A stretch of 62,340 nt of DNA, the filler included. It is 5 parts of 5 records of this genome, joined end to end, with 100 filler letters (N's around TTAATTAATTAA, not from the genome) between each part and the next. Parts side by side here need not be neighbours in the genome. Positions count along the whole stretch, not along the records: positions 32,569 to 56,750 come from SRR31156797_7458; 4 more parts are not named here. One strand, 5' to 3'. Below, piece after piece: positions 46,815 to 53,239 of this stretch (the first letter of the stretch is position 1; the number at the start of each line of letters is the position of its first letter). Position numbers and translations under genes: made by a program. The notes under the pieces are model-generated. The model searched no databases. It worked only from the letters and a program-made list of their open reading frames with translations, and had not been told where the DNA came from.

Positions 46815-46853
46815 AAAAAAACGAGATTACCTCAATAAAGAAGCAATCTCGTT
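46815..46853 (-). terminator. intrinsic terminator of the TonB-dependent receptor gene
   Basis: On -: AACGAGATTGCTTC...GAGGTAATCTCGTT followed by a T run. Confidence 0.75.
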
Positions 46854-46899: not shown

Positions 46900-49362
46900 C
46901 TAAAAGTTGCCAATTTTCACACCTAAGTAGATCGTACGAGGATTTAGCGGTCCGTAAATGTATCCTGCATCTCTGCTTGGACCTCTATCGAAATCATCCT
47001 GAAAAGCATTGAAGATATTCTTTACACCAAAATCAAATTGTAATTTAACTTCTCTTCCCAAATCGAAATGATAAGCAAAATTTACTCCTAAATCCATGAA
47101 ATCATCCGTTTTAACAAGACTTTCCATTTTAATTTTCTTACCATATTTATCATCTCCTCCTGCCAAGTGCAATACCGTCATAGGACCAGTATAAGTTCCC
47201 GATAGAGTAGTCGTAAATTCGTGTAATGGTTTCCAATTTAAAGCAAAATACCCATAGCGTTCAGGAGTTCTCAGAATTTTATCTGTAAAACTATTCTCAA
47301 TAATATCATCTTCACCAACGTCATCACCTTCATCATATTTACTAGATTGAAGAGTCATTCCCATTTGGAAATCCCATTTATACGATGGAGCAAATTTAAA
47401 TTCCATATTGATCCCTTTTACTTTTGCATCAGGACCATTTTCACGAACCGCAACCAACTCTGTAGGATTGTTTTCGTTGGTTTGATAATCATTTTTAAAT
47501 GGATCTATTAGTTGAGTATAAAATCCCTCTGCAAGAAAATAAGTTTGAACCTTACCAAATGATTTTGTGTAATCCCACGATAAAGTGTAACTGTTCGAGG
47601 TTTCTTCTTTCAAATTATCAGCCAATTCATGTGTAATTCTTCTTGCCTGAGAAGCTTCGATATGCAAGTCTTCATCGAAAATTTGAGGAGCACGGAAACC
47701 TCTTGCGTAGCTCATTCTTAATTGAGCAGCTTTTGACATATTAAACAATACATTTGCACGAGGACTAAAAACAGAATTTGAATAATCCGATCCATCAGCA
47801 GAATTCTTTATTTTATATGAATCCATACGAACTCCCAATAAAAATTTAACCGATCCTAAATCCCATTTACTTTGAGCAAAAGCACCAATTGTATTCGAAG
47901 TTTGATCTGCAATAACAGTGGTGGCAATGTTTTCGTTTTTATATGGATCAAAATATCCCAATTTGTCATCCTTCAGACTGTTGTATACATTTTCAACTCC
48001 TAAAGTAATATCTGCCGGAGCAAAAATTAAATTTTCTGATTTTGTAAATAGCTGTGCTCCTGTCGATATTGCAATATCATCGGTTTGTCCATAAGCACTA
48101 TAATCAGGTCTTGCAGGATTATAAATTACTGTATTTCCTTCTTCATCTTTTCCTTCGGTAATCTTAGCACCATAGTAACTCTTACGATCGATAACCTGAC
48201 CTGAAGCATAAACAGACAATCTACTCGTTCTTTCCGTATTTAAATACTGATCAAAGGTTAATCCTCCAGAGTTAATTTTATGACTTACTTCTTCGGCTAC
48301 ATTTGCTTCGTGAGCTTTTAAATCCAAATTGTCACCACCTCGTCGATACTCGTCTACTACATGATATTCCAAGGTTAATTTACTTAAATCCGAGAATCGA
48401 TGATATGCTCTTAAACCAGCACTTAAATTCTCAATCTTCACTAAATCAGAATATCCATCATCATTAGCATCCCAATCACCACGGTTTCGGCTCATACCAA
48501 AAATAAAGATTCCACTTTTATGATCTTCAGAAACAACAGATGCGTTAAAATCAGCTGTTACATCGTTCGCAACACTTCCTGCATCATCAGCACCAACACC
48601 AATGGCACCATACTTAACTCCTGCCTTAAATGAATTGCTAATTGGATCTTTAGTGATAATATTAATAGTCCCAGCAATTGCATTTCCACCAAAAAGAGCC
48701 GATCCACCACCACGAACAACTTCTACACGTTGTATCATATTAGCAGGAATATGTTCCAATCCATATACTCCAGCTAAACCGCTAAAAATTGCACGGCTAT
48801 TTACCAATATTTGAGTATAAGGTCCTTCCAAACCATTCATTCTAACCTGGGAGAAACCACAATTGTTACAGTCGTTCTCAACACGCAAACCTGGCGAAAA
48901 AACCAAACCGTCAGCCAATGTTGCAGCTGATGTTTGCTCCAATAATTTAGTAGAAATAGAATTTACTACTACTGGAGCATCCTTTCTTTGAATGTTATTT
49001 CTATCAGCCGTAACCACAACCTGATCCAATCCAATAAAATCTTCAGCTATTTTAAATTCAAGAGAAGCGTGTTTCCCGCCTTTTAAGTCACATTCTTTCG
49101 TTACTAATTTGTAGCCCACACATGTAGCAATTACATGATAATGCCCCATTGGAACATTTTCAATAACGAATTCTCCTTCGAAATTGGTTACGGCTCCCAT
49201 TGCTGAACCTTCTAAAGCAACACTTGCATAAGGAACTGGTTCATTACTGTTAACGTCTATTACTTTACCTTTAATACTTGCGGTAAGATTTTCTGCCAAT
49301 GCAGAATTAGTGATACTAATCAACATAAACATGCTGATTATCAGATGAGTTAAAATTCTCAT
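46900..49362 (-). CDS. TonB-dependent outer membrane transporter with CxxC in the plug domain
   Basis: Signal peptide; N-terminal CarboxypepD_reg-like domain; LDQVVVTA TonB-box region; GLRVENDCNNCGF; IQRVEVVRGGGSALFG..AIAGTINIITK; GFRAPQIFDEDLH; KNIFN; C-terminal Phe. Confidence 0.93.
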   Translation of the reverse strand: MRILTHLIISMFMLISITNSALAENLTASIKGKVIDVNSNEPVPYASVALEGSAMGAVTNFEGEFVIENVPMGHYHVIATCVGYKLVTKECDLKGGKHASLEFKIAEDFIGLDQVVVTADRNNIQRKDAPVVVNSISTKLLEQTSAATLADGLVFSPGLRVENDCNNCGFSQVRMNGLEGPYTQILVNSRAIFSGLAGVYGLEHIPANMIQRVEVVRGGGSALFGGNAIAGTINIITKDPISNSFKAGVKYGAIGVGADDAGSVANDVTADFNASVVSEDHKSGIFIFGMSRNRGDWDANDDGYSDLVKIENLSAGLRAYHRFSDLSKLTLEYHVVDEYRRGGDNLDLKAHEANVAEEVSHKINSGGLTFDQYLNTERTSRLSVYASGQVIDRKSYYGAKITEGKDEEGNTVIYNPARPDYSAYGQTDDIAISTGAQLFTKSENLIFAPADITLGVENVYNSLKDDKLGYFDPYKNENIATTVIADQTSNTIGAFAQSKWDLGSVKFLLGVRMDSYKIKNSADGSDYSNSVFSPRANVLFNMSKAAQLRMSYARGFRAPQIFDEDLHIEASQARRITHELADNLKEETSNSYTLSWDYTKSFGKVQTYFLAEGFYTQLIDPFKNDYQTNENNPTELVAVRENGPDAKVKGINMEFKFAPSYKWDFQMGMTLQSSKYDEGDDVGEDDIIENSFTDKILRTPERYGYFALNWKPLHEFTTTLSGTYTGPMTVLHLAGGDDKYGKKIKMESLVKTDDFMDLGVNFAYHFDLGREVKLQFDFGVKNIFNAFQDDFDRGPSRDAGYIYGPLNPRTIYLGVKIGNF

Positions 49363-49398
49363 TACTTAAGATTTAGTATTTGATATTAGTGTTTGATT

Positions 49399-49453
49399 AA
49401 AAAGAAAAATACATCATCAACAACTAGACATAATATTCCAGTTAGATGCATTT
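49399..49453 (-). terminator. putative attenuator hairpin + U-tract between leader ORF and TBDT
   Basis: mRNA AAAUGCAUC-UAACUGGA-loop-UCUAGUUG-(bulge)-GAUGUAUUU followed by UUCUUUUU; paired by eye, AU/GU-rich. Confidence 0.45.
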
Positions 49454-49503
49454 GTGTTATTGCCAGACATTAGCTCATAGCAATACCAATAAATAATTCT
49501 AAA

Positions 49504-49869
49504 CTAAGCCAATACCGGAGGTGCCCGGTTAGGTAAAAGGTAATCGAGGTAACTAACCTTAATCTGATAAGTGTATTGTTGTAAAAGTTGTTTAGCTTCT
49601 TTAATTATAGCATTTATGAAGAAAACAACACTTAATACAAATAAAAAACTAGTCAGCTGATTAATCGAAAAACATTCCTGAGAAGAGTGAGAGTGACTGT
49701 TTGCTCCCTGAGAACTTCCTGCTTTATGGAAAGGGTGAGCATGAACAATCATTTTGCCATCCACTGATTTATGAACGTGCCAATTGAACACAGCATTTCC
49801 GGCCAGTAATAACATGGCTGGAAGCAATATGCTTACAATAGCTATTTTATATTTCAAAAATTTGTTCAT
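49504..49869 (-). CDS. His-rich two-hydrophobic-segment leader protein with C-terminal RAPP motif (candidate ribosome arrest peptide)
   Basis: 121 aa from ATG 49869; hydrophobic 9-28 and 72-89; HVH, HAHPFH, HSH and Cys66 between them; ends ...LLPNRAPPVLA-stop (RAPP at 49516-49527). Confidence 0.75.
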   Translation of the reverse strand: MNKFLKYKIAIVSILLPAMLLLAGNAVFNWHVHKSVDGKMIVHAHPFHKAGSSQGANSHSHSSQECFSINQLTSFLFVLSVVFFINAIIKEAKQLLQQYTYQIKVSYLDYLLPNRAPPVLA

Positions 49870-49901
49870 AGTGTCAAGCACTCTTGGAATTAATTTCGAA
49901 A

Positions 49902-49932
49902 CAAAAATAGATACAGATAAGAGGGTAAACAA
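49902..49932 (-). promoter_or_regulatory. Bacteroidota sigmaA-type promoter for leader ORF + TBDT
   Basis: -7 element TATTTTTG (TAnnTTTG) at 49902-49909; TTG 20 nt upstream (49930-49932). Confidence 0.55.
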
Positions 49933-49979: not shown

Positions 49980-51296
49980 TTATAGTGTCAATTTGGCAAA
50001 ATAGTCATCCACCATTTGAAAATCAGCAATTAAATCAAAATCAGAACATTTACCATTAGGACAAATTCGAGTCAGGTAATCCTTCGAGTCACAAATCATT
50101 TCATTGTGCATTAAATACCACAACTGAACAAATTGCCATAATTCAGTTCCGGGACCAAGCTCTCCACGCAGATCATAAGCCTTCTCTGTTAAATCATCAG
50201 TAGCTGAACCATAACGATAAAATAAATTTTTAAATGCGATAGGATTTATTCCTGTCTGTTTTGCTTCATCGAAACGGAAATCAGCAAATTCTATTAATTC
50301 CTGAATCTCTATTCTACTTTCAAAATTAGTATCAACAACTGGTAAATGTTTCACACGGTCTATAAAGTTTGCTGAGCTTACATTCATGTATTTCTTGGCA
50401 AATTTCTCAACTACCAACAACTCTTCCTTTAAGGTATTTGTTTGAGCTAATTCAACTATTTCCTTAGACAATATATCATCCAAGGAATATTTATTGTCCC
50501 AATCTAAAATGGAATTTAATTCATCAAGAATCAATTGCAATTTCACATCATTATCCACAATATTTTCACAAACCAATAAAAAGTGATCTTGGTATCGCAC
50601 CAAGCGAACCAATTCATTATCTACACTAAACTTTAAACTTCTTTTAAGAAACAAACCTTTCTTATCAAGTTTTAAATGAAGCTCTTTATTATTATTAACT
50701 TGTTGATTTGTCTCAAAATTTAACAAATGCTTAAAATCGATAGAGTACTGCATATTATTGACGCAAGTTTTATCTCTAACTGTAAGGCTATTATTGGAAG
50801 TAGTATCTGTATGAATGTGATTTAAAATAGTAGCACCAGCTTTTACAGCACTTTTAATAAGCGTAATTAATAGTCTATTACTACTAATTTTAAACTCTTT
50901 CTCTAAAAAAACATTACAAGATTCATCAATTTTTAAAATGTTCTCATACTTCGCAATATCTTTTCTTTTTATTGCTCCTTTTAATAATCCGCTAATCCGA
51001 GATTTATTGGCTTCAATACATAAATATTCATCAGGTAAGATTAGATGTGGAATTCTATTTCTTAAGGTTTGAATTGATTTCCCATCCACATCTTTCACAT
51101 TTACAATTGGATGCAGTTTAGATGTAAAATCTTGAGGCGCAAAAATTGCACAGGAAAATCCCATACGAACCGCAAGCAAAGCAAAGAGAGCTTCTTTTAC
51201 ATCCAAGTCTAAAAACACAAAATCGAACTCGGATTGAGTGCTTAATTCTAAAAATTTCTTTCTGTTGGTAAGGGAAAATGCTGCGGAATCAACCAT
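49980..51296 (-). CDS. highly degenerate glycerol-3-phosphate dehydrogenase (GlpD)-like protein
   Basis: FSLTNR...EFD.......A..A..MG...A....QDF N-terminus, RLLITLIKSAVKAGATILNH, LFYRYGS and NEM....DY..R motifs follow the GlpD layout; GxGxxG absent. Confidence 0.6.
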   Translation of the reverse strand: MVDSAAFSLTNRKKFLELSTQSEFDFVFLDLDVKEALFALLAVRMGFSCAIFAPQDFTSKLHPIVNVKDVDGKSIQTLRNRIPHLILPDEYLCIEANKSRISGLLKGAIKRKDIAKYENILKIDESCNVFLEKEFKISSNRLLITLIKSAVKAGATILNHIHTDTTSNNSLTVRDKTCVNNMQYSIDFKHLLNFETNQQVNNNKELHLKLDKKGLFLKRSLKFSVDNELVRLVRYQDHFLLVCENIVDNDVKLQLILDELNSILDWDNKYSLDDILSKEIVELAQTNTLKEELLVVEKFAKKYMNVSSANFIDRVKHLPVVDTNFESRIEIQELIEFADFRFDEAKQTGINPIAFKNLFYRYGSATDDLTEKAYDLRGELGPGTELWQFVQLWYLMHNEMICDSKDYLTRICPNGKCSDFDLIADFQMVDDYFAKLTL

Positions 51297-51373: not shown

Positions 51374-53239
51374 TTGAAAAAGATAGCTATTAATATCCTA
51401 TTAGGATTTGCAATTTCAGCTTTTATATATTCTTGTGCAAACCAGGGTTACCCAACCGGAGGTCCTATTGACAATACGCCTCCAAAGGTAACGGAAACAC
51501 AACCGGAAAATTACGCTTTAAATTTTAACGGCGGAAAAATAGAGATTTTCTTCGATGAATTCGTGAAGCTGGAAAAAATCAGTGAAAACTTTGTTATTTC
51601 TCCTCCTTTAAAGAAAACGCCCATCGTAAAGCTTAAAGGAAGATCAATATACGTGAAATTAGAGGAAGAGTTAAAAGAAAACACAACTTACACTCTTGAT
51701 TTCGGAACTGGAATTGTAGATAACAATGAAGGAAATCCTTTAGGAAGTTATCAATTTGTATTCTCTACCGGAGAAAATATTGACTCCTTAAGTATCAAAG
51801 GAAAAATAGACAATGCCTTTGATGAATTACCTGTAGAAGGATCGATGGTCATGGCATATTTAAATACCCATGATTCGGTTCCAATGACCACTATCCCTGA
51901 TTACATTGCTCTAACCGATTCAGCAGGATATTTCCAAATAAACAGCTTACGTGAAGGCACATATAAACTATTTACAATTGTAGATGGTAATAAAGATTAC
52001 ATATACAACGGACCAGGTGAGAAAATTGGATATTTCGACGAATTCATCGTTCCCACATCTCATCGATTTGAACAAATTGATACCATAGCTGAAGATTCAA
52101 TAGTAATAAGAGAACTAACAGCTCTAGAGCCCAATAACATTCATATTAGAATGTTTGATGAAGAAAACACTTTGCAATATTTAACAGGCTATAAAAGAAG
52201 CAGAAGAGAAAAACTTGAGTTTGAATTTAATGCAAAACGAAGCGATAGTTTACTAATTGATTTTGTAGGTATTGACGAAAATCCTAATTGGTTCCTTGCA
52301 GAATCTAACGCAAGCAAAGATACTCTATCGTATTGGATTACCGATTCAACTATCTATAAACGTGATACCTTATTGGCTGCCTTACAATATTTAAAAACCG
52401 ATTCAACAGGAATGTTGACCAACTTTAAGGATACGGTAAAGTTAAACTTTAAAGATCCTAAAAAAGCAAAACAAGCAAAAGGAAAAAAGAAGAAGAAAAA
52501 GTTAAAAATTAAAGTTCCAACTTATAAATTCAAAGTAAGTACAAGTTCAATTCAAGATCTACATAAAGATGTTCCAATTCGTTTTGATGAGCCTTTAGCA
52601 AATATTAATCTCGACAGTATCCATTTTTTCCAATTGAAGGATACTATAGAAATTCCTGTTGATTTTAAAATTGAAAAAGATCCGAAGCACATTCTGGATT
52701 ATAAATTAATTGTGGACTGGAAACCTGAAACTCAATACAAATTAAAAGTAGATTCAACCGCTTTTCAGAATATTTATGGTTTGCACAGTGATTCTTACCA
52801 AGGTAAAATCACCACGAGAGAAAAAGAATACTACGGAAAACTATTCTTAAATGTAAGTGGTGTTCAGTTTCCAACTTTAATACAGTTGCACGAGAGTGCG
52901 AAAAAAGATAAGCTGTTTCAAACTCAAAAAATCAAATCTGACCAAACAGTTTTATTCGATTATCTAGAACCTAAAACCTATATCATTAAAGTAATAATTG
53001 ATAAAAACGACAATGGAATTTGGGATACTGGTAACTACGAAAAAGGAATTCAGCCAGAGCAAGTTTTCTACTTTAGAAAAGAAATCAAAGTCAGATCAAA
53101 CTGGGATGTGGAGGAAAAAATAATGATTCCAGCTGAAACAAGTGTGAATTTTCATGAGCATCATGATTGTGATCAAGACCACGATCATGATCATGAAGGA
53201 GAAAACAATAAAGAAAAGAAATCAAAACGTAACAAATAA
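51374..53239 (+). CDS. Ig-like (Big_5-type) domain lipoprotein with His/Asp-rich tail
   Basis: Lipobox YSCA; PTGGP.D.TPP, FDEF, NTTYTLDFG..IVDNNEGN, FSTG..IDSL, D.N.NG.WDTG....QPE; TAATTTTG -7 element at 51334-51341. Confidence 0.8.
   Translation: MKKIAINILLGFAISAFIYSCANQGYPTGGPIDNTPPKVTETQPENYALNFNGGKIEIFFDEFVKLEKISENFVISPPLKKTPIVKLKGRSIYVKLEEELKENTTYTLDFGTGIVDNNEGNPLGSYQFVFSTGENIDSLSIKGKIDNAFDELPVEGSMVMAYLNTHDSVPMTTIPDYIALTDSAGYFQINSLREGTYKLFTIVDGNKDYIYNGPGEKIGYFDEFIVPTSHRFEQIDTIAEDSIVIRELTALEPNNIHIRMFDEENTLQYLTGYKRSRREKLEFEFNAKRSDSLLIDFVGIDENPNWFLAESNASKDTLSYWITDSTIYKRDTLLAALQYLKTDSTGMLTNFKDTVKLNFKDPKKAKQAKGKKKKKKLKIKVPTYKFKVSTSSIQDLHKDVPIRFDEPLANINLDSIHFFQLKDTIEIPVDFKIEKDPKHILDYKLIVDWKPETQYKLKVDSTAFQNIYGLHSDSYQGKITTREKEYYGKLFLNVSGVQFPTLIQLHESAKKDKLFQTQKIKSDQTVLFDYLEPKTYIIKVIIDKNDNGIWDTGNYEKGIQPEQVFYFRKEIKVRSNWDVEEKIMIPAETSVNFHEHHDCDQDHDHDHEGENNKEKKSKRNK

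Follow-up and report, generated by a model that had tools for sequence, protein, structure and literature searches.

To our knowledge, experimental work on metal-sensing arrest leaders has been confined to proteobacteria, where the two examples, CruR and CutF, both carry Cys motifs and both concern copper. CruR (Bp2923 of Bordetella pertussis) is a DUF2946 protein of 145 amino acids with a CxxC motif and an RAPP sequence three residues from its C-terminus; the distance between the two is reported to vary by no more than one or two residues, the spacer measures 162 nucleotides (nt), and the arrest is needed for expression of a TonB-dependent transporter (TBDT), with copper relieving the arrest and triggering Rho termination (PMC9426467). 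The arrest itself has been demonstrated by toeprint (PMC12992588). In CutF of Rhodobacter capsulatus, likewise a DUF2946 protein, a stalling motif senses periplasmic copper, and a longer stall switches a detoxification gene on (PMC9973294). The subject of the present analysis is an open reading frame (ORF) of 121 amino acids, with a His-rich loop and a C-terminal RAPP, which precedes a TBDT gene on the minus strand of a 62,340-nt stretch of DNA (the window, meaning the whole stretch analysed, with the filler between its joined parts included).

Two surveys place this ORF in a wider setting. Öztürk et al. (2023) catalogued 5,334 CutF-like proteins, 19% of them in Bacteroidota, with TonB-like and resistance-nodulation-division (RND) efflux genes among their neighbours and with two His-only clusters adjoining HupE/UreJ genes (PMC9973294). 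A survey in EMBO J (2025) reported that upstream ORFs ending in RAPP or RGPP are enriched before TonB-dependent receptors in Gram-negative phyla and, in a figure legend, that Bacteroidota proteomes show a depletion of RAPP-like motifs (PMC12992588). An earlier note on this DNA, made from its letters alone, had proposed a candidate new system. This wording is too strong, because CutF-like leaders (PMC9973294) and RAPP/RGPP leaders (PMC12992588) have already been reported. Literature searches, which did not cover the supplementary lists of PMC9973294 or the source data of PMC12992588, returned no paper specific to the His-loop leader family. The general class is already published, and the His-loop family is best regarded as a variant of it that, by analogy, most probably works like CruR and CutF. 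The window ORF itself is likely to be a cis-acting, metal-sensing arrest leader, in which the nascent chain would serve as the sensor, a reading that draws on sequence comparison and on the two proteobacterial precedents.

The likeness to CruR includes a small exported or anchored leader (145 and 121 amino acids), a long spacer (162 and 141 nt), a TBDT as the next gene, and an RAPP close to the C-terminus whose spacing to the ligand motif is conserved. The differences are that the window leader has no CxxC, its candidate ligands being six His residues on a hairpin and in a further HxH, that a second hydrophobic segment stands before its linker, and that its host belongs to the Bacteroidales. 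As for the CutF-like proteins described in PMC9973294, the window leader is similarly shorter than 150 amino acids, has PP among its last 15 residues (positions 117-118) and is followed within 1000 nt by a gene on the same strand, the TBDT lying 141 nt away. CutF, in contrast, has a Cys motif and an EF-P-dependent motif of the PPP type (PMC9973294; bioRxiv 10.1101/2025.02.05.636593), and the His-only clusters of PMC9973294 lie next to HupE/UreJ, whereas the window family lies next to TBDTs.

With the class surveyed in EMBO J the leader shares a small ORF, a C-terminal RAPP or RGPP, a putative localization signal and a downstream TBDT; that survey proceeded by motif and neighbour annotation, and the parts of its text considered here name no His-loop family, second segment or spacing rule (PMC12992588). 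ApdA, ApdP and SecM offer a further parallel, as they too end in R-A-P-P or R-A-G-P and are exported or inserted while arrested, as the leader would be. In these cases, however, the peptide monitors Sec/YidC-type machinery and precedes genes for it (PMC10951233, PMC7897499), which holds for none of the 103 gene contexts collected in this work.

The leader protein and its family

On the minus strand, the order of promoter motif, 121-amino-acid leader ORF, 141-nt spacer, TBDT gene and terminator-like stem was confirmed, and every element and coordinate given in the earlier note, the His set and RAPP included, proved correct. The leader ORF occupies positions 49504-49869, with its ATG at 49869 and its stop codon at 49506-49504. 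A longer TTG-started frame (to 49932) would include the promoter motif, and the homologues all begin at the equivalent Met. Hydropathy places a first hydrophobic segment at residues 9-28 (49786-49845), which would act as an N-terminal anchor or signal and is preceded by K3, K6 and K8, and a second at residues 72-89 (49603-49656); Kyte-Doolittle means over 19 residues exceed 1.6 within residues 4-30 and 66-93. Between the two segments lies the His loop (residues 29-70; 49660-49785), composed of H31xH33, G38, H43xH45-P46, H48, H59xH61, E65 and C66. It contains all of the His residues of the protein, at positions 31, 33, 43, 45, 48, 59 and 61, as well as its one Cys. The second segment is followed by a linker (residues 90-114; 49528-49602), variable in sequence and conserved in length, and by R115-A-P-P118 (49516-49527), an arrest motif by homology, after which only V-L-A and the stop remain.

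The leader was modelled with AlphaFold2 at a mean predicted local distance difference test score (pLDDT) of 82, as a helix over residues 2-28, a beta-hairpin at 30-34/40-44 and a helix over 63-110. In this model the hairpin would set H31/H33 and H43/H45 on adjacent strands. An N-terminal signal peptide also belongs to the definition of CutF-like proteins in PMC9973294; the N-terminus of the leader, a candidate Sec signal peptide, is positively charged as well as hydrophobic over residues 9-28 and is modelled as a continuous helix. A Foldseek comparison of the model with the PDB gave no match at E <= 0.001.

Neither Pfam nor NCBIfam contained a match to the leader at E <= 1, and no Pfam family was matched consistently by 97 aligned family members. 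A word-indexed search returned 25 relatives, the named ones all being Marinifilum entries called 'hypothetical protein', and in the resulting 26-sequence alignment L-L-P-N-R-A-P-P and H31, H33, H43, H45, H59 and H61 vary little or not at all. A phmmer search of 1.84 billion cluster representatives extended the family to 660 proteins at E <= 0.001, almost all of 100-150 amino acids. All database names seen for family members are 'hypothetical protein', with the exception of one evident mis-annotation. Conservation was assessed in the 97-member alignment, whose members are 22-61% identical to the window protein: H31, G38, H43, H45, P117 and P118 are invariant, and N25, H33, P46, H59, H61 and R115 are at least 90% conserved. 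Motifs and spacings were counted in the best 150 of the 660 representatives, where H-[ASC]-H-P occurs in 147/150 and a second HxH in 149/150. A hydrophobic 17-mer (Kyte-Doolittle mean >= 1.6) precedes the first HxH in 143 of 146 representatives, and segment 2, by the same measure, is present in 139 of the 146 that could be scored and in 79 of 97 leaders taken from genome loci.

The C-terminal motif is the most constant part of this arrangement. An xxPP lies no more than 16 residues from the C-terminus in 150/150 representatives, the types being RAPP (87), RGPP (33), RSPP (10), RPPP (6), KAPP (6), HAPP (3) and five others; RAPP and RGPP together account for 120. It is followed by 1-11 residues overall and by 2-5 in 126 of the 150. 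The interval from the second HxH to the motif is 53-59 residues in the 143 representatives that could be scored, and segment 2 ends a median of 26 residues (interquartile range 24-28.5) before the first motif Pro, which means that it would sit at the tunnel exit in a stall. No residue reaches a majority between segment 2 and RAPP in the consensus of the 97 members. The conservation of RAPP, of HxH and HxHP, and of the distance between membrane segment and RAPP, all of which the earlier note had left to be examined in homologues, is therefore borne out by these counts.

At the codon level, 101 leaders use six different Arg codons at the Arg position (four leaders have AAA, for Lys), together with all Ala and Gly codons and all four Pro codons at the respective motif positions. 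This synonymous variety indicates that selection acts on the peptide. Taken by its sequence, the family has both the R-A/G-P-P near the C-terminus and the peptide-level conservation that define the RAPP-arrest class. A chance ORF was considered and ruled out by the conservation among homologues, the size of the family and the universal C-terminal xxPP. The arrangement of the leader lies far beyond chance and, judged from its homologues, is a real and strongly conserved feature.

The relation to DUF2946 can be judged from several comparisons. PF11162 (DUF2946) has no match in the window protein at E <= 1, matches 0/97 members at E <= 0.01 and finds nothing in the near-identical genome G001 at E <= 0.01. 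A profile alignment (hhalign) against six Bacteroidota DUF2946-like proteins aligned only the 19 C-terminal columns, with a probability of 75%, and a C..C pattern is found in 1/150 representatives. By profile and by the lack of CxxC, the leader is not a DUF2946 member, in agreement with the distinction that the earlier note had drawn. The nearest clusters in the ESM Atlas are all unnamed Bacteroidota proteins; the nearest named ones are DUF6769 and DUF2946 (0.93), in a range that is often reached by chance.

As a separate observation, Bacteroidota contain another set of ORFs of 118-140 amino acids (loci L051, L052, L053, L054, L056 and L062), in which an RAPP or RGPP at the C-terminus is found together with clusters of His/Cys (CxxC or HHDC). 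Their scores lie at or just below the DUF2946 cut-off.

One further resemblance concerns NCBIfam NF053668 (HypB_prefix_2), which the His loop matches in 53 of the 97 members, always below threshold (best 1.3e-06, under 35 bits). Matches above the cut-off were found in none of 61 genomes of the order and none of 301 of the phylum. The sub-threshold matches in the 61 genomes are mostly frames of about 120-170 amino acids, and 11 of the 12 returned loci hold a leader. At the level of sequence, this resemblance is an unexplained lead towards nickel.

Distribution, downstream genes and candidate ligands

Genome searches were centred on a 98%-identical Marinifilum locus (L001, in genome G001). The family is present in at least 158 of 401 sampled genomes of Bacteroidales, the order of this locus, and in at least 15 of 401 genomes sampled evenly across the phylum, both counts being lower bounds from genome samples in which only 11 candidates per genome were scored. 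Several Bacteroidales genomes hold 2-5 copies of the leader, some of them as tandem leader-TBDT repeats.

Of the 31 loci of the first round, the window included, 30 have a homologous TBDT immediately downstream on the same strand. In the remaining one (L047), this place is taken by a CusB-like adaptor together with an RND pump of the CusA/CzcA family (TIGR00914, 936 bits, cut-off 701). Beyond Marinifilaceae, synteny is limited to the leader-TBDT pair. Filtering for a hidden Markov model match that extended to position 115 and for an ATG close to the start of the profile then gave a pooled set of 103 non-identical leaders; some leaders, L145, L161 and L133 among them, did not pass. The loci are a non-random collection: 18 come from Marinifilaceae, 12 from the phylum search, 29 from the best matches of the order search and 60 from its middle and lower list.

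In this set the first downstream gene is a TBDT in 92/103 cases and an RND efflux component in 5/103. Less frequent arrangements include hemerythrin/LuxR genes (2/103), an unknown 425-amino-acid protein with ZnuA and ABC-3 permeases (2/103), a DUF6686-flavodoxin-DUF2023 group (1/103), and an unknown 429-amino-acid protein with imelysin and a di-haem oxidoreductase (1/103). One leader heads an HmuY-like gene (26.3 bits, cut-off 27) and a TBDT.

In L104 (G506:C1:4374500-4392500), four family leaders lie within 13 kb, with two further copies elsewhere in the genome. The four head a TBDT; an HmuY-like gene and a TBDT; a DUF6686-flavodoxin-DUF2023-hemerythrin-LuxR operon; and another TBDT. Hemerythrin/RIC-like genes, LuxR-type (GerE) genes or both also occur near the leader-TBDT pair in L120, L127, L144, L105, L152 and L153, where they come behind the TBDT or separate it from the leader.

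The TBDT of the window (46900-49362, minus strand) encodes 820 amino acids with the Pfam domains CarbopepD_reg_2, Plug (PF07715, 4.7e-19) and TonB_dep_Rec_b-barrel (PF00593, 1.6e-30). With its plug and 22-strand barrel domain, the downstream gene is a TBDT. Among NCBIfam models, heme/hemoglobin and siderophore receptor families rank best, all far below their cut-offs: the top-ranked heme/hemoglobin receptor TIGR01785 reaches 97.6 bits against a cut-off of 316.85, and the SusC/RagA glycan transporter model TIGR04056 reaches 53.3 bits against 368.25. For the two other types of leader-linked TBDT, heme and siderophore families are likewise the best and likewise below cut-off. The plug contains a Cys pair, C165-x-x-C168, within E-N-x-C-x-N-C-G-F (48859-48870). 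The earlier note had pointed to this ENxCxNC plug as a mark of the linked transporters, and it does recur: among 73 leader-linked TBDTs, C165 is found in 100% and C168 in 99%, and H351, H361 and H567 are conserved as well.

In two unrelated genomes (L037 and L046), a thioredoxin-like gene of 154 or 157 amino acids lies directly after the leader-linked TBDT, adjoining its end or overlapping it, a neighbourhood to which the invariant plug Cys pair may be relevant.

The identity of the ligand can be approached through these operons. Flavodoxin, RIC-like hemerythrin (TIGR03652, below cut-off), imelysin and HmuY-like neighbours suggest iron or heme, ZnuA-type and CusA/CzcA-type neighbours suggest zinc or other divalent cations, and the lack of Cys/Met ligands speaks against copper. 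Overall, as far as gene content can indicate this, the operons behind related leaders favour iron/heme or zinc over copper. The nickel, cobalt, zinc and copper listed as ligands in the earlier note are not favoured by this context, which includes heme/iron-type operons as well as ZnuA- and CusA/CzcA-type ones.

Around the leader-TBDT pair of the window, several other features were recorded. An intrinsic-terminator-like 14-bp stem with a T-run (46820-46853, minus strand) lies 47 nt past the TBDT stop, and the gene after it (start 46639) has a TAnnTTTG promoter motif of its own at 46663-46656. Directly upstream of the leader, a 438-amino-acid ORF (49980-51296, minus strand) shows a weak match, below cut-off, to DAO_C, the glycerol-3-phosphate oxidase C-terminal domain, and its synteny is kept in Marinifilaceae. 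At a distance of two genes upstream of the leader and in the opposite orientation (51374-53239, plus strand), a 621-amino-acid lipoprotein-like ORF carries a Big_5 Ig-like domain and the His/Asp-rich tail H-E-H-H-D-C-D-Q-D-H-D-H-D-H-E. It is syntenic in five Marinifilaceae loci.

Proposed mechanism, transcript and coupling step

In the proposed mechanism, which follows the analogy with ApdA, ApdP, SecM, CruR and CutF, translation of the leader would arrest when the P site is occupied by Pro117 and the A site by Pro118-tRNA, the predicted codons being 49521-49519 and 49518-49516 of the minus strand. During the arrest, segment 1 would be in the inner membrane, the His hairpin on its periplasmic side and segment 2 at the tunnel exit. 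A divalent metal bound by the His loop would then alter the tension on the nascent chain, either directly or through insertion of segment 2, and thereby how long the arrest lasts. Expression of the downstream gene would in turn be set by the ribosome, arrested or released. The likeliest direction would be that of CruR, in which the arrest persists without metal and the TBDT is on, and the coupling could take place by Rho-dependent polarity, as in CruR, or by local RNA structure, as in CutF.

Such a mechanism depends on a shared transcript, for which the promoter motif is informative. The Bacteroidota -7 motif TATTTTTG (TAnnTTTG) was located by pattern match at 49902-49909, 33-40 nt 5' of the leader ATG. 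In the 62 kb of the window, both strands taken together, there are 77 matches to TAnnTTTG against 77.5 expected, and a single copy is not significant; the window motif carries weight because of its positional enrichment across loci. Scans were made of 100 leaders with 150 nt of upstream sequence and of 103 spacers. TAnnTTTG starts between -70 and -15 of the leader ATG in 68/100 loci, concentrated from -50 to -11, where the chance rate for such intervals, estimated from the motif density in the window, is roughly 3-7%. Within the first 120 nt after the leader stop the motif occurs in 1/103 loci, and the minus strand of the 141-nt window spacer (49363-49503) has none. This distribution, upstream of the leader and rarely in the spacer, supports co-transcription and speaks against a promoter in the spacer, a possibility that the earlier note had named as counting against its idea. 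On this sequence evidence, transcription probably begins at a Bacteroidota promoter just before the leader and continues across the spacer as far as the TBDT gene.

The spacer of the window has a predicted structure of its own. The fold of 49340-49540 has a minimum free energy of -42.6 kcal/mol (z = -2.26), in which the stop-codon region (49509-49499) pairs with the TBDT initiation region (49377-49365). When the footprint of a stalled ribosome is imposed on the window, the probability that the initiation region is unpaired increases from 0.28 to 0.45-0.50. The spacer also contains a hairpin of terminator-like form (49448-49415, -8.8 kcal/mol) with a U-rich tract (49414-49399) after it. The window is one of three spacers with such a hairpin and U-tract, and the feature is local. 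Averaged over the family, there is a mild C excess across the leader and the first 60 nt of the spacer, and the 120 nt after the leader stop fold at a mean of -20.3 kcal/mol compared with -15.3 kcal/mol in mononucleotide shuffles (n=103, Wilcoxon p ~1e-16).

Several results, most of them concerning the coupling step, weigh against the arrest-leader reading. A conserved switch in which the stall opens the initiation region was considered and rejected, as nine relatives show nothing of the kind and the mean over 10 Marinifilaceae loci is unchanged (0.58 vs 0.575). A conserved intrinsic terminator in the spacer was likewise rejected, being present in 3/103 spacers compared with 1/103 after dinucleotide shuffling. 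No conserved downstream coupling element emerged among the tested spacers, and no C>G bubble is present in the window spacer. The control for spacer structure given above is a weak one, as it consists of mononucleotide shuffles only. The exact promoter motif is absent from the tested interval in 32/100 loci. Finally, the His motif shows no visible difference between importer-linked and exporter-linked leaders, and the same motif before both kinds of transporter means that the mechanism would need opposite wiring or different ligands.

Alternative explanations and significance

Three other explanations were weighed against a metal-sensing arrest leader. In one of them, the regulation at the window would be a local RNA switch, in which pairing with the stop-codon region hides the TBDT initiation region, or transcription is attenuated at the hairpin and U-tract (49448-49399), with the position of the ribosome selecting the state. 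The predicted pairing with its partial opening under the footprint, together with the hairpin and its U-rich tract, argues for such a switch in the window; neither the pairing nor the hairpin is conserved in relatives, and the z-score of the fold is only modest. The idea is also one version of the coupling step of the arrest leader, not a separate system, and as an explanation of its own it appears rather unlikely. It may alternatively be supposed that the leader is a stable two-pass inner-membrane protein that binds metal and partners the TBDT, for instance as an acceptor or relay on the periplasmic face, while RAPP merely slows translation for insertion or translational coupling and no metal-dependent regulation takes place. 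The confident AlphaFold2 model with its two long helices and hairpin, the conservation of both hydrophobic segments and the constant proximity to transport genes would suit a protein of this kind. Such a protein would leave unaccounted for a linker that is devoid of conserved residues yet fixed in length, a motif held 2-5 residues from the stop in most members, and leaders that head unrelated operon types, including one with a cytoplasmic flavodoxin. RAPP and RGPP are, moreover, reported to be avoided in ordinary proteins (PMC12992588). We regard this explanation as improbable.

A leader that arrests for another purpose has also to be considered, namely one that reports the capacity of Sec/YidC for insertion or secretion, or envelope stress, in the way of MifM, SecM and CliM, with the His residues playing a structural part. 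Segment 2 is placed where its insertion would pull on the arrested chain, and the RAPP peptides ApdA and ApdP are described as monitors of localization pathways (PMC7897499, PMC10951233). The genes behind the leader tell a different story, as the 103 contexts contain no sec or yidC gene and consist entirely of TBDTs or metal- or iron-linked operons, and six His residues that are invariant or nearly so are hard to reconcile with a merely structural role. A monitor of this kind seems very improbable.

With the metal-sensing arrest leader as the favoured reading, a broader proposal can be formulated, which we put forward tentatively and consider open to doubt as a whole. The two-segment RAPP family with the His loop might have arisen independently of DUF2946 and might be the main post-transcriptional sensor of periplasmic metal in Bacteroidales. 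One module would then be used for importers (TBDTs and ZnuA-type ABC systems), exporters (CusA/CzcA-type RND pumps) and iron-sparing genes such as flavodoxin, the lifetime of the arrest being set by metal-dependent insertion of segment 2 about 26 residues from the peptidyl-transferase centre.

The leader family is very common in Bacteroidales and yet unannotated, and it is distinguished by its His-only loop and by an extra membrane segment whose distance to the predicted stall site is fixed. If the arrest-leader reading is true, about a hundred proteins now called 'hypothetical protein' could be annotated in every few hundred genomes, and the TBDT subfamily linked to the leader, in which the plug Cys pair is invariant, would be flagged as an importer of metal or heme-iron. 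The family would also serve as a test case for force exerted on a nascent chain by ligand binding outside the membrane. For the Bacteroidales themselves, it would represent a route to sense periplasmic metal without a protein regulator.

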